A stretch of 24,000 nucleotides of DNA, taken from Bryobacterales bacterium (GTDB lineage Bacteria > Acidobacteriota > Terriglobia > Bryobacterales > UBA6623). Position numbers and translations under genes: made by a program. Shown here one piece after another: positions 7,615 through 18,316 of this stretch. The stretch spans positions 1,042,062 through 1,066,061 of the forward strand of contig OZ224030.1 in NCBI GenBank assembly GCA_963666225.3. The letters run 5' to 3'. Under the pieces are notes generated by a model, which was given only the letters and a program-made list of their open reading frames with translations, did no database searches and was not told the DNA's origin. Position 1 is the first letter of the stretch. Every line of letters begins with the position of its first letter.

Positions 7615-8055
7615 GTGGCCTACCGTCGGTCCGTGCCCCGGAGTCCGATCAAGACAGCGATCGGAGTCCTCGGGGTTTTGGTCAACCTGGCCTTGGGTCT
7701 GTTCTGTCTGGGCTTGGGCCTGCTTGGGTGGATCGAGGGCGGCGAGATGCGGGTGGACCTTCTGCCGGTGGAGGCCGAGAGCGCGGCTGGGTGGCTGCTA
7801 GTCATCGGGACTTTCGGGACCATCGCGTCGGGGTTGGCCATTTCCGCCGCTGGCTGGCGCGCCGGTCCCCACTTTGTGTGGGCACTAGCCGTGGCCCTGG
7901 CATTGGTGGCCGCGGTGTTTCGGTCCGGATATCGGTTTGACGGGATTGAAGGGCTAATAAGCCACGGGTGGGAAGTCCTTGCCTCGCTGCTCTTGGTGGT
8001 CGCGAGCTGGTGGCGGCTTCGGTCCCCGGGCCGGGTCCGGAGACCCATGCCGTAG
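7615..8055 (+). CDS. Small integral membrane protein (about 4 TM helices), function unknown
   Basis: GTG start. There are four hydrophobic stretches (IGVLGVLVNLALGLFCLGLGLLGW, WLLVIGTFGTIASGLAISAAGW, FVWALAVALALVAAVF, WEVLASLLLVVASWW). No family was recognised. Confidence 0.5.
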   Translation: MAYRRSVPRSPIKTAIGVLGVLVNLALGLFCLGLGLLGWIEGGEMRVDLLPVEAESAAGWLLVIGTFGTIASGLAISAAGWRAGPHFVWALAVALALVAAVFRSGYRFDGIEGLISHGWEVLASLLLVVASWWRLRSPGRVRRPMP

Positions 8056-8162
8056 CCACCGGTCCGTCCACCTCGCGCTGCCGCAGCGCAGGGTGACGTT
8101 CCGGCCTGTGACCGCGGACGCCCGTCGGCTTGGTGCAGCATAATGGTCGGGGGCTCGGGACG

Positions 8163-9323
8163 ATGGATTTCTTCGACCAGGTGGGCCAAGCGTTGTCTTC
8201 CGGCGACGTCGATCGCGGGTTCGAGCTCGCGATTGAGCGTTTTCGCGAGGAGCGGGCCTACCCTCTGATCTTCGAAGCCCGCCTGATGCGCAAGCGCCAT
8301 GCGCTGGGCATGCCGCTGATCCAGACCGAGCCTTGGAAGAACCTCGAGCCTTCCGTTCAGGCGGAGTACGAGAGGGCGACCATGGAGGCTGCCGGGGAGG
8401 TCGGCGGGCTGTTCTTGGAGGACGGCGAGATTGGCAAGGCGTGGCCGTACTTCCGGGCCATCGGTGACCGAGAGGCCGTGCGCTCGGCGATTGAGGAGCA
8501 CGGCCCCACCGCGAGCGGCGAGGCTCTGGAGGGAGTGATCGAGGTTGCCTATCACGAGCAGGTCAGCCCGAGGCGCGGATTCGAGCTGATCCTGAAGCAC
8601 CACGGCACTTGCCGGGCGATCACCAACTTCTCGCAGTACCCGGTCGAGGAAGGGCGGGCGGACTGTGCCCAGATGCTGGCCGAGAATGTGCACTCGGAAT
8701 TGCTCGGCAACATCAAGTACGCCATCGAGAAACACGACGGAAGCGCTCCCGACGGCGATGATTTGGCGGCCACCGTGGTCGGCAGGGACTGGCTCTTCGA
8801 CGGGAATGCCTACTACTTGGACACCTCGCATGTCTCCTCGCTTGTCCAAATGGCACCCTCCATTGACAGGTCGGAGACCCTGAGGCTGTTGCTCGGGCTC
8901 GCCGAGTACGGCCGCCGCCTCGGGGAGATGTACCAGTTTCCCGGGAATCCGCCGTTCGAAGACGTCTTCGCGGACTTCGCGGTCTATATCAAGGCAGTGC
9001 TCGGCGTCGAGGTCGAGGCCGGGCTGGACCACTTCCGCCGCAAGATCGAGGTCTGCGACCCGAACGTGGCCGGGACCACGCCTGCTCAGGTGCTGGTCAA
9101 CCTGTTGGTGCGTATAGGCAGGAAGGCCGAGGCGGTCGACGTCGCGCTGGAGCATCTGACCGATGCCAATCCGCAATTCCTGCAGTGCCCGGGACCGCTG
9201 CAGCTTTGCCAGATCGCTGGGGATTACGGGCGGCTGGCCACGGTGGCCCGCGAGCGGCGCGACCTACTCAGCTTCGCGGCGGCGACGATGCAGGATTCCC
9301 CACTGCCAAGGCCGGCGGCCTAG
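8163..9323 (+). CDS. Conserved hypothetical protein (all-alpha composition), function unknown
   Basis: The ORF has a balanced, protein-like composition. An ATG (MDFFDQ...) is preceded by a G-rich stretch; the track start at 8130 is a TTG 11 codons upstream. The stop TAG (9321-9323) lies inside the 9-bp target duplication of the downstream insertion. Confidence 0.7.
   Translation: MDFFDQVGQALSSGDVDRGFELAIERFREERAYPLIFEARLMRKRHALGMPLIQTEPWKNLEPSVQAEYERATMEAAGEVGGLFLEDGEIGKAWPYFRAIGDREAVRSAIEEHGPTASGEALEGVIEVAYHEQVSPRRGFELILKHHGTCRAITNFSQYPVEEGRADCAQMLAENVHSELLGNIKYAIEKHDGSAPDGDDLAATVVGRDWLFDGNAYYLDTSHVSSLVQMAPSIDRSETLRLLLGLAEYGRRLGEMYQFPGNPPFEDVFADFAVYIKAVLGVEVEAGLDHFRRKIEVCDPNVAGTTPAQVLVNLLVRIGRKAEAVDVALEHLTDANPQFLQCPGPLQLCQIAGDYGRLATVARERRDLLSFAAATMQDSPLPRPAA
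9315..9323. repeat. Left copy of the 9-bp direct target-site duplication GCGGCCTAG
   Basis: An identical 9-mer abuts the outer end of the right terminal repeat at 16840-16848. Confidence 0.75.
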
Positions 9324-9373
9324 CTAGCGCTACATCGTAGTTAACACAGAGCGGGTTAGTCGTGTAGAACAGC
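9324..9373 (+). repeat. Left terminal inverted repeat, outer part (before the intron)
   Basis: CTAGCGCTACATCGTAGTTAACACAGAGCGGGTTAGTCGTGTAGAACAGC matches the reverse complement of 16790-16839 with 5 mismatches. Confidence 0.8.
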
Positions 9374-9719
9374 GTGCGCCGTGCTAAGGCACTGGCTCCC
9401 AGCGGGTGCGAAGCCCGCCCGGCTAACTGTCGCTCCAGCCGGAAGCCGTCGGAGCGGGTCATGGAGGTAACGACATGGACTGAAGCACTTCGACGTGACG
9501 GGCCGCCTTTTGGGCGGCTCAGCGAGCACGCAGGCCGCAACGCGAGTGAACGCCGAGCAGGCCTCGAAAAGCACAATGCGGAGGCCGACCCGCCGTTGTT
9601 TCGGGGAAGGCAGCTAGCGTCCGGGAAGCGAGCGACGCGAGCACCGGGCGTCTCCGCCGGGGTATTGGCGGCAGCATGCGTGCAAGAGGGAGACGGAGGC
9701 AACACGGGAAGCCCTGGCG

Positions 9720-11210
9720 GTGGCGCGCACGCGCCAACCGGCATCCCGCGAGGGACAGGCCGGGCCGGGCAGGGTGGCGGAGAGGCCCGTAGTACCGACG
9801 AAGCCGGGTAACTCCGGCGGAGGGAAGGGACCTCAGTTCGAGAGCGATGCGGGAAGGGGGAAAGGACCGGTGGAGACTGGCGAAGGCCTAGGAGCTCCGG
9901 AAACTGTTCGGAGACTCCAGACGGCATTACATGTGAAAGCGAAGGGAGATCCGGGCTTTCGGTTCTACACGCTGAGTGACAAGGTGTGGCGGGAGGACGT
10001 GATGGCTGCCGCGTGGCAGGCGGTGCGCCGCAACGGCGGGGCCTGCGGAGTGGACGGCGAGACGTTCCAGCACATCGAGGAGCGAGGCGTGGACGGCTGG
10101 CTCGGAGGACTGGCGGAAGAGCTGAGGGAGAACACCTACCGACCGCATGCGGTGCGGCAGGTGCTGATCCCGAAGAAGCAGCCGGGGAAATTCCGACCGC
10201 TGGGCATACCGTGCATCCGGGACCGGGTAGCGCAGACGGCGGCCACGCTGGTGTTGACGCCGATCTTCGAAGCGGACCTGCAACCGGAACAGTACGCCTA
10301 CAGGGAGGGCCGGAGCGCGCTGGACGCGGTGCGTCACGCGCATCGGCTGGTGCACACCGGGCACGGCGAAATCGTGGACGGCGATCTGTCGAATTACTTT
10401 GGCGAGATCCCGCACACCGAACTCATCAAGTCCATCGCGCGGCGCGTTAGCGACGGGCGGATGCTGGGCTGGATCAAGCTGTGGCTGGAGATGGCTGTGG
10501 TAGAGGACGACGGCAAGGGCGGCCAGCGCCGCACGAACCGGGCGCGCCGGGAAAGGAAGGGGACGCCGCAAGGCGCTCCGATCTCCCCGTTGCTGAGCAA
10601 CGTCTACATGCGGCGGTTCCTCCTAGGTTGGAAGCTGCTGGGCCTGGCCCGGCGGTTCGGCGCGGAGATAGTGAATTACGCGGACGACTTCGTGATCTGC
10701 GGCAAGGCCCCGGCGGAAGCCATGCGGGCCGCAGTCGAAAGGATCATGGGGAAGCTGCGCTTACCGCTGAACGCGACGAAGACCGACTGCCTGCGCACGC
10801 CGGAGGAGCCGTTCGAGTTCCTCGGGTACCGCATCGGACGCAATTACAGCCCGCGCACAGGCCGGGCCTACATAGGCACGCGCCCGAGCAAGGCGAGCGT
10901 CCGCAGCATATGCCGCAAGATCAGTGAGCTGACTCGGGCAAGATACGGGCTGCTGGCCCCGGAACTGGTGGTGGCGAGGCTGAACCGAGCGATGCTCGGC
11001 TGGGCGAACTACTTCCGGTTGGGACAGGTGAGCCCGGCGTATTGCGCCGTGGACGCACACGCGGTCAAGCGGCTGCGTCAGTGGCTGTGTCGGAAGCACA
11101 AGGTGAAATCGGGGAGATACGTGCGCTACCCGAGCGAGAGGCTGTGGGACGACTTCGGCCTCGTGCGCCTGCAACTGCTGACGGCCAGCTTCCCGTGGGC
11201 GAAGACATGA
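9720..11210 (+). CDS. Group II intron-encoded reverse transcriptase/maturase (no endonuclease domain seen)
   Basis: The N-terminal block is typical of bacterial intron-encoded proteins (RRLQTALHVKAKGDPGFRFYTLSDKVWREDV...NGGACGVDGETF). RT motifs are present, including PLGIPCIRDRVAQ and NYADDFVI (YADD). The C-terminus has a maturase/X-domain-like segment (LNRAMLGWANYFRLG). The start codon is uncertain: GTG at 9720 or a later GTG. Confidence 0.9.
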   Translation: MARTRQPASREGQAGPGRVAERPVVPTKPGNSGGGKGPQFESDAGRGKGPVETGEGLGAPETVRRLQTALHVKAKGDPGFRFYTLSDKVWREDVMAAAWQAVRRNGGACGVDGETFQHIEERGVDGWLGGLAEELRENTYRPHAVRQVLIPKKQPGKFRPLGIPCIRDRVAQTAATLVLTPIFEADLQPEQYAYREGRSALDAVRHAHRLVHTGHGEIVDGDLSNYFGEIPHTELIKSIARRVSDGRMLGWIKLWLEMAVVEDDGKGGQRRTNRARRERKGTPQGAPISPLLSNVYMRRFLLGWKLLGLARRFGAEIVNYADDFVICGKAPAEAMRAAVERIMGKLRLPLNATKTDCLRTPEEPFEFLGYRIGRNYSPRTGRAYIGTRPSKASVRSICRKISELTRARYGLLAPELVVARLNRAMLGWANYFRLGQVSPAYCAVDAHAVKRLRQWLCRKHKVKSGRYVRYPSERLWDDFGLVRLQLLTASFPWAKT

Positions 11211-11220
11211 TCTCGTCCGA

Positions 11221-11253
11221 GAGCCGGATGCTGGAAATCGGCACGTCCGGTTC
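11221..11253 (+). ncRNA. Group II intron domain V (catalytic hairpin)
   Basis: GAGCCGGAUGCUGGAAAUCGGCACGUCCGGUUC has a 9-bp lower stem with the AGC triad, a 2-nt AC bulge, a 4-bp upper stem and a GAAA-type loop. It lies 10 nt after the IEP stop. Confidence 0.85.
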
Positions 11254-11256
11254 GAC

Positions 11257-11383
11257 GAGCGGGGAGAGGAAACGTGGCTAAGCAGGAAGGTCAGTGAGGC
11301 ACCTACAGATGGCGAAAGCCGTAGGAACAACCCCAAAACAGCTACTGCTTCTTGACTAAGGCCAACGCGCCTCTCCTCGACTC
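11257..11383 (+). ncRNA. Group II intron domain VI, unusually long (about 127 nt)
   Basis: Basal helix GAG/CTC, unpaired A at 11380, then CGGGGAGAGG (11260-11269) pairs with CCTCTCCTCG (11370-11379). The distal arm contains AAGCAG/CTGCTT and a CCTAC...GGC-GAAA-GCC...GTAGG hairpin. All pairings were found by eye only. Confidence 0.55.
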
Positions 11384-11386
11384 TAC

Positions 11387-11435
11387 AGTAGTGCGAATTG
11401 GCCTGCGTATGCTGAAGCTGGGCACAGCCGATTGG
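11387..11435 (+). repeat. Left terminal inverted repeat, inner part (after the intron); contains the DUF4338 start codon
   Basis: AGTAGTGCGAATTGGCCTGCGTATGCTGAAGCTGGGCACAGCCGATTGG matches the reverse complement of 16741-16789 with 3 mismatches. Confidence 0.8.
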
Positions 11436-11519
11436 TTGCGCGAGGCTCTGCGGAAGGGCACGCTCTCGCGGGCGGCCTTGGCACGACAGCTGTGTGAGCT
11501 GGACGGCTGGCGCAACTAG
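11409..11519 (+). pseudogene. DUF4338 (DruA-family) gene, 5' fragment of 36 codons, ending at a TAG supplied by the abutting Rpn cassette
   Basis: MLKLGTADWLREALRKGTLSRAALARQLCELDGWRN*. The sequence continues in frame (NRKGERCAASARKGLPRLAAELGLPLPP...) on the opposite strand at 14500 downward. Confidence 0.65.
11498..11516 (+). repeat. 19-bp junction repeat GCTGGACGGCTGGCGCAAC, copy 1
   Basis: Identical copies occur at 14508-14526 (direct) and 14482-14500 (inverted). All three sit exactly at rearrangement junctions. Confidence 0.9.
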
Positions 11520-11864
11520 CCCTGCCAGCATGATCGTGCCGGTTCCCGTGCTACCGTCCAGCCACTCTCTGGCGGGGCCAGCCCGCGGACTGTGGCTCTT
11601 GAAGGGCGCTGACGATTGAAGGGCCGATGCCCACCCGTGCCCGGCAGCGAACCTCGGCGGTCGTGAGGGCTCAGGCGACCGGGCCCTATGCCGACGCAGC
11701 CGTCTCGGGGCCATCCTCTGCTGGCAGTTGCGGTGTGATGGTTGTCCGCAGGGCTCGTTTCGCGATTCACCGCACAATCATCGAGGCCGGGCGGCGGTGC
11801 TACCCTGCCCCTTGACGCCGACGCGGTCCTGACTTGTAGCGGCGGCGAGCATCACCAACCCACC

Positions 11865-12860
11865 ATGGATCCGGCAGTCAACCCTGGCAAGCCCAAAGAC
11901 AAGAAGCCACGCAACACCATTGACAAGCCGCACGACGCCCTCTTCCAAGGGCTGCTTTCGGACCCGCTGCGCTCGCAGTCCGTGCTGCAGGCGCACCTGG
12001 AGCGGTGGACGCTGGAGCTGCTGGCCGACGAATTGCCAGTGCCGCTGGACCCCAGCTTCGTGGACGAGGCCTTGCGTCGGAGCCAGAGCGACAAGCTGCT
12101 ACAGGTGACGCTCAAGGATGGCGCGCCAGGCTACGTGTATGCCCTGCTGGAGCACAAGTCCTATCCGGACGCAGGTACGGCGCTGCAGATCTCAACGTAC
12201 AAGAGCCGTATCTGGGAACGGTACGCCCAAGGCCGAGCGAGCAGGCTCCGGGCGCTGCCGACGATCATCCCTGTCGTGTTCTATCACGGGGAAGAGGAGT
12301 GGACGGCACCGATGTCGATTCGGGAAATGCTGCGGACCCGGGACGAACGGTCGCGGAAACTGGAGCCAGCGCTTGGGTATTATCTGCGGGACTTGAGAAG
12401 GATTCCAGCGGAGCAACTGGCATCCGACCGGGCAGCGCGGGCGGGTTTGATCGCGCTGCGCCACTCGCATGCGCGCAGCCAGGACGAGCGGCTGCGGGAA
12501 CTGCCCGAAGTAGTGGCCGGGCCACGGTCGGGATCGGAGTACGAGAAGCAGGTTTTCATGTATCTTATGAACATCTGGGGCATCGCGTCCGAAACGCTGG
12601 GAGACGTTGCGGAAGTAGTCAAACCGAGGAGGGGTAAGGCCGTGGTTGGACAGATCGTGCAGGAACTCATTGATCGGGGCGAGGCCAAAGGGCTGGCTGG
12701 TGCCTTGACACGACTCTTGGAGCGTCGATTCGGCATGCTGCCGCTTGCAGTCCGTAGGTGGATCGCAACGGCCCCGCCGAGTGAGCTGGACGATCGGTTC
12801 ACCGACTCCTTGGACGCCAAGTCCCTCGCCGAAGTGTTTCCGGGGCTCGATTGGAACTGA
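11865..12860 (+). CDS. Rpn family recombination-promoting nuclease / putative transposase (PD-(D/E)xK, YhgA-like) with DUF4351-like C-terminal domain, copy 1
   Basis: KPHDALFQGLL near the N-terminus; SDKLLQV...GYVYALLEHKSYPD (D...ExK core); LPTIIPVVFYHGEEEWT; C-terminal GEAKG...LLERRFG...LD...L.AKSLAEV. These match E. coli RpnA-type landmarks (PHDAVFK, YSDVLY, VLIEHQS, LPLVIPILFYHG). I chose the ATG at 11865 over the track's TTG at 11742. No Shine-Dalgarno is visible (CACCAACCCACC-ATG). Confidence 0.85.
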   Translation: MDPAVNPGKPKDKKPRNTIDKPHDALFQGLLSDPLRSQSVLQAHLERWTLELLADELPVPLDPSFVDEALRRSQSDKLLQVTLKDGAPGYVYALLEHKSYPDAGTALQISTYKSRIWERYAQGRASRLRALPTIIPVVFYHGEEEWTAPMSIREMLRTRDERSRKLEPALGYYLRDLRRIPAEQLASDRAARAGLIALRHSHARSQDERLRELPEVVAGPRSGSEYEKQVFMYLMNIWGIASETLGDVAEVVKPRRGKAVVGQIVQELIDRGEAKGLAGALTRLLERRFGMLPLAVRRWIATAPPSELDDRFTDSLDAKSLAEVFPGLDWN

Positions 12861-12977
12861 GGAAGCCGCTGGCCGCGAGCCGCCCGGAGGTTCGCCTCGA
12901 TCTGCACCAGGTAGGACCACAATGCTAACCGGGCGTGGGTTTCCAGATTGTCCCGGCGAGTGCGCGGCGCGCCGGAG

Positions 12978-13224
12978 TCAACCGGAGAAATACTGAAGGT
13001 CCCAGGACGGTCGGCCGCGACAGATCGAGCCAGCGGCTGAGCACCGGCCGGGCGACTTGAGGAAGATACTGGGTGTACGGCTTGCGTCGGACCTCGCGGC
13101 GCGGGCGCTTAATCGTGCTGCGGCACCGTGCGCTGCCCGAAGTGGTGACACAGACGGCGGTCGGGATCGGATCTCGAGAAGCGAGTGTTCTTGTGCCTCA
13201 TGAAGGTTTGGGACGGTGGGCCGA
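12978..13224 (+). pseudogene. Decayed Rpn paralog remnant downstream of copy 1
   Basis: Nucleotide-level colinearity with Rpn codons from about SIREML through ...SGSEYEKQVFMYLMNIW. For example, TCGGGATCGGATCTCGAGAAGCGAGTGTTCTTGTGCCTCATGAAGG aligns with TCGGGATCGGAGTACGAGAAGCAGGTTTTCATGTATCTTATGAAC. The remnant is interrupted by stops and indels. Confidence 0.55.
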
Positions 13225-13285
13225 CTAGCGCGGAAGCGTAGTTAACTCTTACTTTCAGTTGCGAGTTGAAGTTGGCCTGGCCGAA
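13225..13285 (+). repeat. Third, more diverged copy of the terminal-repeat motif (internal)
   Basis: CTAGCGCGGAAGCGTAGTTAAC matches CTAGCGCTACATCGTAGTTAAC of the left TIR at 18 of 22 positions. It is followed by a second similar block (...GTTGCGAGTTGAAGTTGGCCTG versus ...GTAGTGCGAATTGGCCTG). Confidence 0.5.
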
Positions 13286-13820
13286 TCTGTGAGAGTCCCC
13301 GGGGGCGGTGGGCCAAGTCTGGAGGATGGCAGCAGCGGTGCAGACGAGTCTAGTGCCCAGCGGCGTTCTGGGCGTGCTGCAGGCCGCCGTCTTCGGGGAG
13401 AGTGGGCGGCGCTGTCCCTTGGGCGCCCGCGCCTCCCATGGCCGGCGACTGCGGCCAAGCCGTGGGTCTGTGCGAGGTTCAGCCAACAGACTGGCCGACC
13501 GCGCACCGGCTCCAGACGGACTAGCGGACGTTCTCCGGCTTTGCACCCCGGTGAGGGCCCCTGTGGTTCGCCGCGAACTGTCGCGCTAGTCCCGAGCTCT
13601 CCGGCTTGGCGCTACCGGGACTCCATGGCCTGCGGCCGGGCTGCGCTCGGCGGCTATCAATCACCGTCGAAAATTGCACACTTTTCGGGAGCCGCCGCGG
13701 AGGGGGCGGAGCGACCGGAGCGGGGGCTCCCGATGGAGTCGAGACACCCATCATGACCCTGCTCCCCCATTCCCGGTGTGCTCCGCGGAGACGGCGCGGG
13801 AGGCCGTTGGATGGATGGCC

Positions 13821-14500
13821 TTCGAGAGTTCCATATGGCGGCGCATCCCGCGCGTAGCGCACCAGCAAGGAGACCTGCTTGCGATTGCGCTCCGGCTCGC
13901 GGAAGTCCGGCCTGGCCCGCTGCGCCCGCGAGGGCTCCTTGGCCCCCCGCGGCAGGCCCTCCGTCTCACCCAGGCACTCAAAGCCCGCCGCCTTGTAGCA
14001 CGTCGCCCGCCGGTGCTGCTCGACGCAGGTCTCAACCGCCACCGGTGCGCTCCCGTTCAGCCGCTGACAGTCGAGGCCCAAGCGCCGCAGCGCCAAGCCC
14101 GGCACGTGGCTGGCGAGGTTCTTGACAACCACGCCGGAGCGCACCAGGAAACGGTCGTTGGAGACCAGCTTGGGCAGGTTCCGGCGGCGGGTGCGCTCGT
14201 CCCAGCCCAGATGCTGGTCGCGCGGCCCTAGGCGCATCGGCGCGGCCACGAAGCTGACCACCCCCACGACCTGACCCCCCGGCTCGGACGCCGTACACCA
14301 GCCGGAAACCCGGTGCGCGCCCGCGCCCCAGCGGATGTTCCGCAGCCAGCAGATCCCCATAGTGCCGACGCAGCTTGAGCGTGTCGGCCGGGCGCCGCGC
14401 CGGCGGCAAGGGCAGACCTAGCTCTGCCGCCAGCCTTGGCAGACCCTTGCGAGCCGAGGCCGCACACCTCTCCCCTTTCCGGTTGCGCCAGCCGTCCAGC
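13821..14500 (-). pseudogene. DUF4338 (DruA-family) gene, 3' portion on the minus strand; frameshifted
   Basis: Two minus-strand frames together give LDGWRNRKGERCAASARKGLPRLAAELGLPLPP...HPLGRGRAPGFRLVYGVRAGG / QVVGVVSFVAAPMRLGPRDQHLGWDE..NLPKLVSNDRFLV...VKNLASH...VAVETCVEQHRRATCYKAAGFECLGETEG. This follows the DUF4338 pattern (..AAxWxxxxRDxxIGW..NLxxVVNNxRFLILP..NLAS..LLETFV..GTCYKAANW..G.T.G). The frame switches at a G6 run (14275-14280). Several conserved positions are substituted, and the ORF runs past the expected C-terminus. Confidence 0.7.
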
Positions 14501-14526
14501 TGTGTGAGCTGGACGGCTGGCGCAAC
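14482..14526. repeat. Perfect 45-nt palindrome: 19-bp arm, 7-nt spacer (TGTGTGA), 19-bp arm
   Basis: GTTGCGCCAGCCGTCCAGC TGTGTGA GCTGGACGGCTGGCGCAAC. The left arm is the start of the minus-strand DUF4338 3' piece. The right arm plus spacer duplicates 11491-11516. Confidence 0.9.
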
Positions 14527-14807
14527 TAGCCCTGCCAGCATGATCGTGCCGGTTCCCGTGCTACCGTCCAACCACTCTCTGGCGGGGCCAGCCCGCGGAC
14601 TGTGGCTCTTGAAAGGCGCTGACGATTGAAGGGCCGACGCAGCCGTCTCGGGGCCATCCTCTGCTGGCAGTTGCGGTGTGATGGTTGTCCGCAGGGCTCG
14701 TTTCGCGATGCACCGCACAATCATCGAGGCCGGGCGGCGGTGCTACCCTGCCCCTTGACGCCGACGCGGTCCTAGCCTGTAGCGGCGCCGAGCATCACCA
14801 ACCCACC

Positions 14808-15875
14808 ATGGATCCGGCAGTCAACCCTGGCAAGCCCAAAGACGAGAAGCCACGCAACACCATTGACAAGCCGCACGACGCTCTCTTCCAAGGGCTGCTC
14901 TCGGACCCGCTGCGCTCGCAGTCCGTGCTGCAGGCGCACCTGGAGCGGTGGACGCTGGAGCTGCTGGCCGACGAATTGCCAGTGCCGCTGGACCCCAGCT
15001 TCGTGGACCAGGCCTTGCGTCGGAGCCAGAGCGACAAGCTGCTGCAGGTGACGCTCAAGGATGGCGCGCCAGGCTACGTGTATGCCCTGCTGGAGCACAA
15101 GTCCTATCCGGACGCAGGTACGGCGCTGCAGATCTCAACGTACAAGAGCCGTATCTGGGAACGGTACGCCCAAGGCCGAGCGAGCAGGCTCCGGGCGCTG
15201 CCGACGATCATCCCTGTCGTGTTCTATCACGGGGAAGAGGAGTGGACGGCACCGATGTCGATTCGGGAAATGCTGCAGACCCGGGACGAACGGTCGCGGA
15301 AGCTGGAGCCAGCGTTTGGGTATTATCTGAGGGACTTGAGAAGGATTCCAGCGGAGCAACTGGCATCCGACGCCGCAGCGCGGGCGGGTTTGATCGCGCT
15401 GCGCCACTCGCATGCGCGCAGCCAGGACGAGCGGCTGCGGGAACTGCCCGAAGTAGTGGCCGGGCCACGGTCGGGATCGGAGTACGAGAAGCAGGTTTTC
15501 ATGTATCTTATGAACATCTGGGGCATCGCGTCCGAAACGCTGGGAGACGTTGCGGAAGTAGTCAAACCGAGGAGGGGTAAGGCCGTGGTTGGACAGATCG
15601 TACAGGAGCTCATTGATCGGGGCAAGGCCCAGGGGCTGGCGCAAGGGCTGATCAAGGGGGAGGCCAAGGGCGAGGCCAAGGGGCTGATCAAGGGCGAGGC
15701 CAAAGGGCTGGCTGGTGCCTTGACACGACTCTTGGAGCGTCGATTCGGCATGCTGCCGCGTGCAGTCCGTAGGTGGATCGCAACGGCCCCGGCCAGTGAG
15801 CTGGACGCTCGGTTTACCGACTCCTTGGACGCCAAGTCCCTCGCCGAGGTATTTCCGGGCCTTGATTGGAACTGA
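14808..15875 (+). CDS. Rpn family recombination-promoting nuclease / putative transposase, copy 2
   Basis: Near-identical to copy 1, with a handful of substitutions by eye. It carries a 24-codon expansion of a GEAKG/GLIKG-type repeat in the linker before the C-terminal domain. It has the same upstream leader minus a 67-bp segment. Confidence 0.85.
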   Translation: MDPAVNPGKPKDEKPRNTIDKPHDALFQGLLSDPLRSQSVLQAHLERWTLELLADELPVPLDPSFVDQALRRSQSDKLLQVTLKDGAPGYVYALLEHKSYPDAGTALQISTYKSRIWERYAQGRASRLRALPTIIPVVFYHGEEEWTAPMSIREMLQTRDERSRKLEPAFGYYLRDLRRIPAEQLASDAAARAGLIALRHSHARSQDERLRELPEVVAGPRSGSEYEKQVFMYLMNIWGIASETLGDVAEVVKPRRGKAVVGQIVQELIDRGKAQGLAQGLIKGEAKGEAKGLIKGEAKGLAGALTRLLERRFGMLPRAVRRWIATAPASELDARFTDSLDAKSLAEVFPGLDWN

Positions 15876-15992
15876 GGAAGCTGCTGGCCGCAAGCCGCCC
15901 GGAGGTTCGCCTCGATCTGCACCAGGTCGGACCACAATGCTAACCGGGCGTGGGTTTCCAGGTTGTCCCGGCGAGTGCGCGGCGCGCCGGAG

Positions 15993-16198
15993 TCAACCGG
16001 GGAAATACTGAAGGTCCCAGAACGGTCGACCGCGAGAGATCGAACCAGCGTCCGAGCACCGGCCGGGCGCCTTGAGGAAGATACTGGGTGAACGGCTTGC
16101 GTCGGACCTCGCGGCGCGGGCGCTTAATCGTGCTGCGGCACCGTGCGCTGCCCGAAGTGGTGACACAGACGGCGGTCGCGATCGGATCTCGAGAAGCG
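15993..16198 (+). pseudogene. Decayed Rpn paralog remnant downstream of copy 2, truncated by a crossover into genuine Rpn sequence
   Basis: Colinear with 12978-13188. At GAGAAGCG (16191-16198) the sequence switches from the decayed type to the intact-gene type. Confidence 0.55.
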
Positions 16199-16205
16199 GG
16201 TTTTC

Positions 16206-16556
16206 ATGTATCTTATGAACATCTGGGGCATCGCGTCCGAAACGCTGGGAGACGTTGCGGAAGTAGTCAAACCGAGGAGGGGTAAGGCCGTGGTTGGACA
16301 GATCGTACAGGAACTCATTGATCGGGGCAAGGCCCAGGGGCTGGCGCAAGGGCTGATCAAGGGGGAGGCCAAGGGCGAGGCCAAGGGGCTGGCTGGTGCC
16401 TTGACACGACTCTTGGAGCGTCGATTCGGCATGCTGCCGCGTGCAGTCCGTAGGTGGATCGCAACGGCCCCGGCCAGTGAGCTGGACGCTCGGTTTACCG
16501 ACTCCTTGGACGCCAAGTCCCTCGCCGAGGTATTTCCGGGCCTTGATTGGAACTGA
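16206..16556 (+). CDS. Orphan ORF equal to the C-terminal 116 residues of Rpn (linker plus DUF4351-like domain only)
   Basis: MYLMNIWGIASETLGD...AEVFPGLDWN is identical in register to the C-terminus of copy 2 and starts at the in-frame Met pair (M-Y-L-M) present inside both full-length genes. It has an intermediate repeat number in the linker. Whether it is expressed is unknown. Confidence 0.55.
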   Translation: MYLMNIWGIASETLGDVAEVVKPRRGKAVVGQIVQELIDRGKAQGLAQGLIKGEAKGEAKGLAGALTRLLERRFGMLPRAVRRWIATAPASELDARFTDSLDAKSLAEVFPGLDWN

Positions 16557-16673
16557 GGAAGCTGCTGGCCGCAAGCCGCCCGGAGGTTCGCCTCGATCTG
16601 CACCAGGTCGGACCACAATGCTAACCGGGCGTGGGTTTCCAGGTTGTCCCGGCGAGTGCGCGGCGCGCCGGAG

Positions 16674-16740
16674 TCAACCGGGGAAATACTGAAGGTCCCA
16701 GAACGGTCGACCGCGAGAGATCGAACCAGCGTCTGAGCAC
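16674..16740 (+). pseudogene. Third decayed Rpn remnant, cut off by the right terminal repeat
   Basis: Matches 15993-16059 with one substitution, ending ...CAGCGTCTGAGCAC directly at the inner edge of the right TIR. Confidence 0.5.
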
Positions 16741-16839
16741 CCAATCGGCTGTGCCCGGCTTCAGCATGCGCAGACCAATTCGCACTACTGCTGTACTACA
16801 CCACTAACCCCCTCTGTCTTAACTGCGATGTAGCGCTAG
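16741..16839 (-). repeat. Right terminal inverted repeat (uninterrupted, 99 bp)
   Basis: Its reverse complement equals 9324-9373 plus 11387-11435 with 8 mismatches, and includes a copy of the DUF4338 start (ATGCTGAAGCCGGGCACAGCCGATTGG). Confidence 0.8.
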
Positions 16840-16848
16840 GCGGCCTAG
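16840..16848. repeat. Right copy of the 9-bp direct target-site duplication GCGGCCTAG
   Basis: Identical to 9315-9323 and immediately outside the TIR end. Confidence 0.75.
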
Positions 16849-16882: not shown

Positions 16883-18316
16883 GTGTTAGCAGAGCCAGTC
16901 CACTCCGAGCTGAGCCGGGTCGTGGGGGAGCGGTTCGTCCTCCACGATGACCGGGATCTGCTGCTGTACGAGTACGACGGCAGCATTGACAAGGGACGGC
17001 CCGACTGCGTGGTCTTGCCCCGCACGACCGAGCAAGTCTTGGAGATCGTGCGCATCGTCGGGGAACACTCGCTCCCAATCGTCGGCCGCGGGGCCGGCAC
17101 GGGCCTCAGCGGGGGCACGATAGCCACCCGCGGTGGCGTGATGGTCGGATTCTCGCGGATGAACAAGATCCTCGAGATCGACCTTGAGAACGAGTGTGCC
17201 GTAGTCCAGCCAGGCGTCGTCAACCTTGACATCACCCGCGCCGTTCAGGGGCACGGATATTATTACGCCCCGGACCCCTCGTCGCAGAAGGCCTGCACCA
17301 TCGGAGGCAACGTGGCCGAGAACGCCGGCGGCCCGCACACGCTCATTTACGGGGTCACCACGAATCATGTCCTCGGCCTGGAGGCCGTCCTGCCCGACGG
17401 GACGCTGCTCGAGATCGGCGGCAAGGAGCAGGACCTGGCCGGTTACGACCTGACCGGGCTGCTGACCGGGTCTGAGGGCACGATGGCGCTCGTCACCAAG
17501 GTCATTGTCAGGCTCATGCGGTCGTGCGAGGCCGTGGAGACCCTGCTGGCGATCTATGACCGGCCGGACGATGCCGCGACGACGGTCGGCGAGCTGACGG
17601 AGCGGGCAATCACCCCGGCGGCCGTGGAAATGCTCGACGGGGTGATGCTGCGAATGGTGGAGGAGGCCACGCACGCTGGATTTCCGCTCGACGCGCAAGC
17701 CGTGCTGTTGATCGAGCTGGAAGGGGTCAGGGAAGGGGTCGCCCAGCAGCTCGGGCAGGTTCGGTCCGTCTGTTTGGAGTCCGGTGCCCGCGAGGTGCGC
17801 GTCGCGAAGACCCCCGCCGAACGGGCGTTGCTGTGGAAGGGCCGCAAGAACGCGTTTGGGGCCGTCGGCCGGGTCAGCCCGACCTACTACGTGCAGGACG
17901 GCGTCGTTCCGCGGACGCGGATCGCCGACACGCTGCGCCACATCTACCGCGTCTCCGAGAAGTACGGCCTCACGATCAGCAACATCTTCCACGCCGGGGA
18001 CGGGAACATGCACCCGATCATCCTGTTCGACCCGCGCAGCGAGGACGAGACGCAGCGCACGCGGGCCGCCGGCGAGGAAATCTTGCGCTACTGCATTGAC
18101 GCTGGTGGGGCGATCACCGGCGAGCACGGGGTCGGCATGGAGAAGAATGAGCTCATGCCGCTGCTGTTCTCGGACGACAGCCTCGCCCAGATTGCGCGCC
18201 TGATGCGCATATTCAACCCCGACGGGCGGCTCAACCCTGGGAAGGTCCTGCCGACCGGGAAGGGATGCTTGGAGGTTCGGCCTCCCGCCGCGGCGCACAA
18301 GGCCGTAGTCTGGTAG
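16883..18316 (+). CDS. glcD: FAD-linked oxidase, glycolate oxidase subunit GlcD-like
   Basis: The FAD-binding PCMH-type region is closely GlcD-like: PDCVVLPRTTEQVLEIVRIVGEHSLPIVGRGAGTGLSGG; MNKILEIDLENECAVVQPGVVNLDI; YYAPDPSSQKACTIGGNVAENAGGPHTLIYGVT; C-terminal GAITGEHGVGMEK. No glcE or glcF is adjacent, so the substrate is uncertain. Confidence 0.85.
   Translation: MLAEPVHSELSRVVGERFVLHDDRDLLLYEYDGSIDKGRPDCVVLPRTTEQVLEIVRIVGEHSLPIVGRGAGTGLSGGTIATRGGVMVGFSRMNKILEIDLENECAVVQPGVVNLDITRAVQGHGYYYAPDPSSQKACTIGGNVAENAGGPHTLIYGVTTNHVLGLEAVLPDGTLLEIGGKEQDLAGYDLTGLLTGSEGTMALVTKVIVRLMRSCEAVETLLAIYDRPDDAATTVGELTERAITPAAVEMLDGVMLRMVEEATHAGFPLDAQAVLLIELEGVREGVAQQLGQVRSVCLESGAREVRVAKTPAERALLWKGRKNAFGAVGRVSPTYYVQDGVVPRTRIADTLRHIYRVSEKYGLTISNIFHAGDGNMHPIILFDPRSEDETQRTRAAGEEILRYCIDAGGAITGEHGVGMEKNELMPLLFSDDSLAQIARLMRIFNPDGRLNPGKVLPTGKGCLEVRPPAAAHKAVVW

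Follow-up and report, generated by a model that had tools for sequence, protein, structure and literature searches.

A split DUF4338 gene in a Bryobacterales genome is the wreck of insertion sequence copies around an rpn array

In composite transposons of the Tn5 and Tn10 type, inverted copies of an IS4-family insertion sequence (IS) bracket a passenger. Genes of the rpn family have been reported as non-autonomous hitchhikers that occur in arrays with small downstream homologues, and their four-residue C-terminal repeats, which are hypervariable, have been reported to tune RpnS-RpnL pairing (PMC10400941). The domain DUF4338 has been described as GNAT-like (PMC10853773). The locus studied here combines the three. 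It lies in a 24,000-nucleotide (nt) stretch of the genome of a Bryobacterales bacterium (assembly GCA_963666225.3, contig OZ224030.1, positions 1,042,062 to 1,066,061), hereafter the window, in which a DUF4338 gene is divided between the two strands (11409-14526) next to rpn genes. A preliminary description of this DNA had explained the division either as a fossil inversion or as a reversible DNA switch. The split gene is the wreck of IS copies around an rpn array, and thus a frozen rearrangement scar; a reversible switch is not supported.

The block at 9324-16839 is a composite unit that was inserted by means of two inward-facing IS left ends. The second of these ends (16737-16839, minus strand) is 90-93% identical to 9324-9373 plus 11386-11439. 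Directly outside the two left ends lies a target duplication that is identical at 9 of 9 positions, and a relative whose flanking gene is 82% identical (L028) has an empty site with a single GCCGCCTAG. The gene order in L028 is the same: the flanking gene, 53 nt, a flavin adenine dinucleotide (FAD) oxidase and then an M28 peptidase. The two left ends, the 9-base pair (bp) duplication and the empty site, all observed directly, therefore make 9324-16839 a single 7.5-kb insertion. Within it, the IS right end at 13225 and the left end at 16839 share one orientation. Considered as a composite transposon, the block shows two IS copies that flank a passenger, one target duplication and absence from L028; considered for current mobility, it is without an intact transposase. 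From left to right, the anatomy of the block is as follows (ORF, open reading frame; RT, reverse transcriptase; J1 to J3, junctions; L001 to L004, related IS copies).

9315-9323, no strand: left copy of the target duplication, GCGGCCTAG, 9 bp; contains the stop codon of the flanking gene 8130-9323.
9324-9373, plus strand: left end of IS copy A (terminal inverted repeat with subterminal region), CTAGCGCTACATCGTAGTTAAC; pairs with 16790-16839 as inverted repeat I2; aligns to the L001-L004 left ends.
9374-11386, plus strand: group II intron with an RT/maturase ORF at 9720-11210, placed after the IS left end and ahead of the transposase start codon.
11409-11516, plus strand: N-terminal piece, the first 36 transposase codons (start of the DUF4338 domain) of IS copy A; stops at J1 (AAC/TAG).
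11497-11516, plus strand: copy 1 of a 20-mer, codons 30-36.
11517-13224, plus strand: rpn unit 1, comprising an upstream region, the rpn1 ORF 11865-12860 (331 aa) and a tail; repeat families D1-D5.
13225-13300, minus strand: IS right end with its outer end at 13225, CTAGCGCGGAAGCGTAGTTAAC; aligned with the right ends of L003 and L004, with BLAST matches to both.
13301-13871, minus strand: degenerate 3' IS remnant; compared with L001, the transposase coding sequence lacks about 1.2 kb.
13872-14501, minus strand: DUF4338-domain part from codon 30 on, with a 105-nt in-frame deletion at about 14394 and a 1-nt insertion at about 14275.
14482-14526, no strand: palindrome at J2, made of 20-mer copy 2 (minus), the loop GTGTG and 20-mer copy 3 (plus); its centre is the native quasi-palindrome CAGCT GTGTG AGCTG.
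14527-16172, plus strand: rpn unit 2, comprising the upstream region minus 67 nt, the rpn2 ORF 14808-15875 (355 aa) and a tail.
16173-16736, plus strand: partial tandem duplicate of the rpn 3' half and tail, with a period of about 705 nt; holds a stand-alone 116-aa RpnS-like ORF at 16206-16556.
16737-16839, minus strand: second IS left end and first 10 codons (MLKPGTADWV); inverted repeats I1 (93%) and I2 (90%).
16840-16848, no strand: right copy of the target duplication, GCGGCCTAG; the FAD-oxidase gene starts 34 nt further on (start codon at 16883).

By its domain matches, the "DUF4338 gene" is the N-terminal domain of an IS4-family transposase and not a Druantia component. The protein rebuilt from the two pieces matches the Pfam family DruA/DUF4338 (PF14236) with 51 bits for the window copy and 58 bits for L001, an intact relative in a Bryobacterales metagenome-assembled genome (MAG). 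In L001 the transposase ORF has 803 aa: DUF4338 extends to about residue 300 and is followed by an IS4/Tn5 DNA-binding domain (309-364) and an IS4-family transposase domain (356-769), and the protein matches NF033590 with 253.8 bits (cut-off 160). Membership in the IS4 family is seen in the DDE transposase of L001, the same part being deleted in the window copy. Compared with L001 and L003, the minus-strand part has lost 105 nt in frame near 14394 and carries an extra T near 14275 that causes a +1 frameshift. Its homology to the transposase ends at about 13872, and about 1.2 kb (L001 8824-10045) is absent. With this 1.2 kb the copy has lost its DNA-binding domain and most of its catalytic portion, so re-inversion gives no functional ORF. 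These defects are directly visible, and the window transposase copy is dead in either orientation. The ORF that was called here in the source genome, 13521-14360, is P0002.

A scan of genome contigs found only four related IS copies, in two Bryobacterales MAGs and at about 82% identity, and none of these four has rpn beside it. Alignment of the ends of these copies gives the family's terminal inverted repeats as CTAGCGC-N5-CG(T/G)AGTT(A/G)AC. Target duplications made by the family measure 9 bp, as seen in L003 (CACTGGCTG), in L001 (ACATTCTGG) and around the window block. L003 itself (7929-15136, with target duplication) carries a passenger of about 5 kb that includes a 738-aa large serine recombinase with helix-turn-helix domains (10771-12987); this IS family can therefore carry other passengers too. 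The C-terminal part in the window differs from P0012, P0005, P0001 and P0004 by 7-9 each and has no clear nearest relative. Its assignment to IS copy A or to the second copy, B, by subfamily residues (for instance, GLPRL versus GLPGL) was tried and failed.

The reading frame is divided much as the preliminary description had proposed. On the plus strand, 11409-11516 translates to MLKLGTADWLREALRKGTLSRAALARQLCELDGWRN and ends in ELDGWRN directly before TAG, as claimed. The 19-mer GCTGGACGGCTGGCGCAAC, noted at 11498-11516 (plus) and inverted at 14482-14500, was found at both sites and extends to perfect arms of 20 nt (11497-11516 and 14482-14501) that enclose a segment of 2,965 bp; 100 shuffles gave zero matches of the 19-mer repeat. 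The suggestion that inversion of 11517-14481 would restore the frame also agrees with the computed join: when 11516 is followed by the reverse-complemented sequence from 14481, the frame continues as ...CELDGWRN-RKGERCAASARKGL, and the order ELDGWRN to RKGE is native in five homologues (P0001, P0003, P0004, P0005 and P0012). Such an inversion would give the end described as TIR-like (terminal inverted repeat-like; 13225-13285) the expected orientation, with 13225-13300 aligning to the right ends of L003 and L004, and the invertible block does carry the first rpn copy, with the PF04754 match of rpn1 inside it. The preliminary description did not include the third 20-mer and the palindrome, the 3,010-bp direct repeat, the second left end and the remaining defects of the ORF.

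The 20-mer, AGCTGGACGGCTGGCGCAAC, is present in three copies: 11497-11516 (plus), 14482-14501 (minus) and 14507-14526 (plus). Its repetition is far above chance because both arms descend from one transposase coding sequence, and not through selection of a recombination site. The second and third copies form a perfect 20-bp palindrome at 14482-14526 with the 5-nt loop GTGTG (-29.9 kcal/mol as DNA, z = -7.7). This transposase subfamily has a native quasi-palindrome, CAGCT GTGTG AGCTG, which lies at 11487-11501. At 14497-14511, the palindrome follows the native minus strand as far as CAGCT on its left arm; on its right arm it follows the native plus strand from CAGCT GTGTG, past codon 36 and into the region upstream of rpn. 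Thus, J2 joins an inverted native copy to an rpn-fused copy with a 5-nt overlap. The third 20-mer also opens a direct repeat, in which 11487-11630 and 14497-14640 are 98% identical with a start-to-start spacing of 3,010 nt. Two other origins of the palindrome were considered and rejected: self-primed snap-back of the native gene predicts a plus-strand loop CACAC and the C-terminal part on both arms, which is not observed, and a blunt cut at CAGCTG followed by rejoining predicts another junction sequence. The exact 20-mer was also found in an unrelated phage gene (KLDGWRNLL) by a scan of IMG/VR viral contigs (L029 7251-7270 and L030 3136-3155). These two contigs share nothing else with the window, and we take the match for coincidence; a short shared peptide in GC-rich DNA can suffice for it.

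Relatives of the locus carry the same junction. J2 (C-terminal part, minus-strand 20-mer, GTGTG, plus-strand 20-mer and TAGCCC-rpn) is seen base for base in the scaffold L026 of ERZ23492359, which has a gap of 10 Ns, and in the contig L027 (no Ns). These come from other samples and different assemblers; both J2 and J1 are present in them, and J2 has the same orientation as in the window. The palindrome is therefore real and stable, and not an artefact of the window assembly. The rpn sequence of L026 and L027 differs from the window copies at 18-36 of 1,309 sites (1.4-2.7%). In the four-way rpn comparison, L026 and L027 are nearly identical, so that it amounts to three lineages, is unrooted and does not decide which window copy is the orthologous one. 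A contig of L026 with the same chromosomal flank and left end follows the window for 229 nt, 100% identical, up to window position 11485. After this point (L026 230-276), 4 of 27 positions differ (QLYELDGWHN versus QLCELDGWRN in the window), and the native CGGAAAGG follows. As a result, the copy-A 20-mer of L026 has two mismatches to the other two copies, and the other two of the single-nucleotide polymorphisms (SNPs) lie outside the 20-mer. In another MAG, P0012 matches the window N-terminus over the first 28 residues, has the same two amino-acid variants as L026 and runs natively for 163 codons. The clustered SNPs of L026 look like a recombination or conversion boundary, or like an assembler path into another IS copy; the end of the contig could be such a path because the scaffold link to the rpn contig fits a window-like adjacency.

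The history that we favour, with confidence divided about equally between belief and doubt, is that the two halves of the gene are remnants of two inverted IS4-family copies that were rearranged by a 3,010-bp tandem duplication and left as a frozen scar. We infer the order and mechanism of the events from the junctions. Copy A would run from 9324 and copy B from 16839 to 13225 on the minus strand, and both would bracket the rpn array, starting from an ancestor with the order left end, codons 1-36, rpn, tail and inverted intact IS. First, copy A would have been cut short after codon 36 and joined to the region upstream of rpn (J1). The tandem duplication (20-mer, rpn, tail and right part of B) would then have run from CAGCT at 11487 to CAGCT at 14497, using the 5-nt microhomology CAGCT that the quasi-palindrome CAGCT-GTGTG-AGCTG offers in both inverted copies; this would have placed the plus-strand 20-mer beside the minus-strand 20-mer of B and so created the palindrome at 14482-14526. 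An unequal crossover would have followed, giving the 705-nt duplication, and finally a deletion from the second tail into codon 10 of B, giving J3, at which the rpn tail meets codon 10 of the inverted IS (16736/16737). The N-terminal piece would thus come from copy A and the C-terminal part from copy B, and the 20-nt repeat would be the coding stretch that both kept. Since the C-terminal part is oriented like the left end at 16839, it can be assigned to the second, inverted IS copy, and no inversion is required. Upstream of the junction, CAGCT occurs at only 4 sites without the intron and at 7 with it; landing on the quasi-palindrome of copy A is therefore a moderate coincidence, about 1-in-4 to 1-in-7, and no extreme one.

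Several points weigh against the tandem duplication. Both of its breakpoints fall on the same quasi-palindrome, for which a local fold-back is more natural than a 3-kb jump. The L026 contig and P0012 hint that some strains have an uninterrupted gene here, as a history of inversion would more readily explain, and L026 and L027 cross the palindrome without a branch towards copy A, which is unexpected if those strains hold the A-J1 junction. In addition, divergence is 7-10% between the two IS left ends (A and B) and 3% between the rpn units, and A and B share no region longer than 20 nt by which the C-terminal part could be assigned.

A fossil inversion that followed a fold-back duplication is comparably or nearly as parsimonious, and we consider it possible, if on the doubtful side; it would be irreversible in practice. 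Since the third 20-mer and the palindrome also need explaining, a history of inversion requires prior fold-back duplication of the rpn segment. Its ancestor would have had an intact left IS, with the N- and C-terminal parts contiguous on the plus strand, and a right IS truncated at codon 36 and fused to antisense rpn. The nascent strand would have switched at the quasi-palindrome of the right copy and copied rpn backwards, giving a head-to-head rpn duplication centred on CAGCT-GTGTG-AGCTG, and a single inversion between the 20-mer of the left copy and that of the left arm would then have produced the direct rpn repeat and the split gene. These steps would account for the exact coincidence of the palindrome centre, stem and loop orientation with the native quasi-palindrome, and for the position of J2 and J3 only 57 nt apart within one IS copy; they are also compatible with the L026 contig and P0012, in which this N-terminal type continues natively into a C-terminal part, and with the confirmed in-frame join. 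However, they need an intermediate with perfect palindrome arms of about 1.7 kb and a 5-nt loop. Long perfect palindromes are normally very unstable and are usually resolved by central deletion, not by inversion through a 20-bp repeat 3 kb away. At least as many events are needed as for the tandem duplication. In L026 and L027, J2 is seen in its present orientation only (with the C-terminal part on the left arm), and a sequence with rpn on both arms was not found among the relatives examined.

The passenger of the unit is an rpn array. The Pfam family PF04754 matches rpn1 (1.7e-40) and the other rpn (8.8e-41) over profile positions 1-193 of 203. Units 1 and 2 differ by 55 substitutions in 1,662 aligned nt (about 3%) and by indels of 67 and 72 nt, and both ORFs are intact, with 12 synonymous and 8 non-synonymous differences; the divergence and the substitution pattern thus make the duplication an old one, with both genes apparently maintained. 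A stretch of 67 nt that precedes rpn1 (11623-11689) is missing before rpn2 (14632/14633) and is kept in L026 and L027. There are 21 private differences in rpn2 versus 8 in rpn1, with clustered substitutions at the equivalents of 11831-11845 and 12429-12431. In the four-residue repeat block (GEAK/GLIK-like; 12660-12700, 15600-15700 and 16320-16390), rpn1, rpn2 and the partial copy show differences of 24 and 8 residues, and the lengths of these three and of P0127 and P0129 differ by multiples of 4 aa. The stand-alone RpnS-like ORF (16206-16556) has a third repeat number. The joint that yields this ORF (16173-16198) is recombinant, a crossover between the diverged rpn fragment of the tail and rpn2's own sequence. 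This paralogue fragment lies at about 13105-13224 in the tail of rpn1 and is about 73-76% identical to the matching region of rpn1/rpn2; as this fragment is cut by the IS right end at 13225, the IS copy entered a pre-existing rpn array. A metagenome scan with Rpn1 returned only distant relatives (identity of 46% or less) that were uninformative for the junctions, and PADLOC gave zero matches for the transposase or the Rpn proteins.

It has also to be weighed whether the Rpn nuclease itself made the breaks behind the array, through RpnL-promoted, RecA-independent recombination. We think this improbable. The quasi-palindrome junction, the 705-nt crossover that makes the RpnS-like gene and the changes in repeat number would be its footprints, in an array that rides on a composite transposon. 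In a weaker form of the same idea, the 20-bp repeats would still allow rare flips and hence a strain-level polymorphism of rpn1 orientation.

An active switch, in which the 20-bp inverted repeats recombine and the 3-kb segment flips to toggle the DUF4338 gene and the orientation of rpn1, is hardly credible. The repeats are perfect and flank 2,965 bp, and a mixed population could yield the L026 scaffold, which pairs a native N-C junction with the palindrome in its present orientation. The repeats are, however, ordinary codons 30-36 and no dedicated site. The preliminary description held that a switch would turn DUF4338 off, but the gene is dead both ways: the rebuilt ORF is still frameshifted, 105 nt short and without the transposase moiety, and there is therefore nothing functional to switch on. 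With its four clustered SNPs, the native junction of L026 represents a diverged haplotype or another IS copy and not the same DNA flipped; two of the four fall outside the 20-mer and could not result from flipping, and the two mismatches within the copy-A 20-mer would hinder homologous exchange. The junction has also stayed unchanged while the linked rpn diverged by 1.4-2.7%. Pfam searches with 18 ORFs of the window and with the rebuilt DUF4338 ORF, small ORFs being not exhaustively scanned, found no invertase, resolvase, integrase or tyrosine recombinase; the scanned window ORFs contain GlnE, TPR, TonB-dependent receptor, group II intron RT, Rpn, FAD oxidase, M28 peptidase and DUF1501. Of the two earlier proposals, the fossil inversion thus stands as one of two comparably parsimonious histories, and the switch is not supported, with no recombinase found and a broken ORF. 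The locus should not go forward as a DNA-switch candidate. Least credible of all is an assembly artefact, that is, a chimeric join at the repeats behind the palindromic or the A-rpn1 junction: assemblers classically go wrong at palindromic joins and at repeated 3-kb units, but the palindromic junction recurs with identical flanks in two independent assemblies (L026 and L027), which confirm all but 11516/11517, and rpn1 and rpn2, with 55 substitutions and two indels between them, are real separate copies.

Two further observations concern the left part of the block and its surroundings. The element at 9374-11386 is a group II intron with ribozyme domains (Rfam RF02003 and RF00029), an RT/maturase ORF (Pfam RVT_1 and GIIM; NCBIfam TIGR04416, 311.9 bits) and an intron-less allele: in L026, a conspecific metagenome contig with an otherwise identical allele, positions 130-150 read uninterrupted from ...GAACAGC into AGTAGTGCG. 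An intron of 82.7% identity lies inverted inside the right terminal repeat of the related IS copies in L001 (10907-12920) and L002 (10902-12915); ends of this IS family seem to be homing targets of the intron lineage. The whole insertion sits 34 nt upstream of the FAD-oxidase start and may affect expression of the FAD oxidase and the M28 peptidase.

Among known systems, the Druantia protein DruA shares the Pfam domain (PF14236) with the window gene. Unlike in Druantia, the domain is fused to an IS4 transposase in the intact relatives; there was no PADLOC match to DruA, and no Dru partner genes were found among the scanned window ORFs. An IS4-family lineage whose transposase has an N-terminal DUF4338 is thereby documented, which calls for caution in labelling such fragments Druantia DruA. 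Like Hin, Gin and Fim invertons and shufflons, the locus has short perfect inverted repeats around a gene-bearing segment of a few kb. Conversely, no recombinase gene was found, the repeats are coding fragments, the ORF is non-functional both ways, and two orientations on the same haplotype were not seen in L026 and L027. RecA-independent template switching at quasi-palindromes and nearly precise excision between inverted IS copies are reportedly known from the E. coli work of Ripley, Lovett, Foster and Kleckner. By analogy, J2 may have arisen in a similar way, as it lies at a 5+5+5-nt quasi-palindrome with 5-nt microhomology that was turned into a perfect 20-bp palindrome. In contrast to those cases, about 3 kb was moved or duplicated instead of a few bases being corrected, and the mechanism is read from the junction sequence.

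The nearest counterparts of the block as a whole are the Tn5/Tn10 composite transposons, with which it shares inverted IS4-family copies around a passenger, outer ends used together with a 9-bp target duplication, and rearrangements at short repeats within the inverted copies. In contrast to Tn5/Tn10, both IS copies in the window are transposase-less remnants, so that the unit could move only with help in trans; the family's transposase has an additional DUF4338 domain at its N-terminus, and the passenger is an rpn array instead of a resistance gene. The array resembles the RpnL/RpnS toxin-antitoxin defence genes, which encode YhgA-like nucleases (Kingston et al., 2017, PMC5350276; Zhong et al., 2023, PMC10400941), in its near full-length PF04754 and in copies whose (G/L)xKG-type repeat blocks differ in length by multiples of four residues, although its Rpn is only distantly similar to E. 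coli RpnA (NCBIfam, 54.8 bits, cut-off 583). Like published rpn arrays, it has a duplicated gene with a stand-alone C-terminal homologue downstream (PMC10400941). The junctions preserve how this array and its stand-alone RpnS-like gene arose. Whereas the rpn loci described before have no defined ends around rpn, and hitchhiking was only suspected in the published work (PMC10400941), the window offers a clean case of rpn genes inside a transposon-like unit with a clear target duplication and an empty site.

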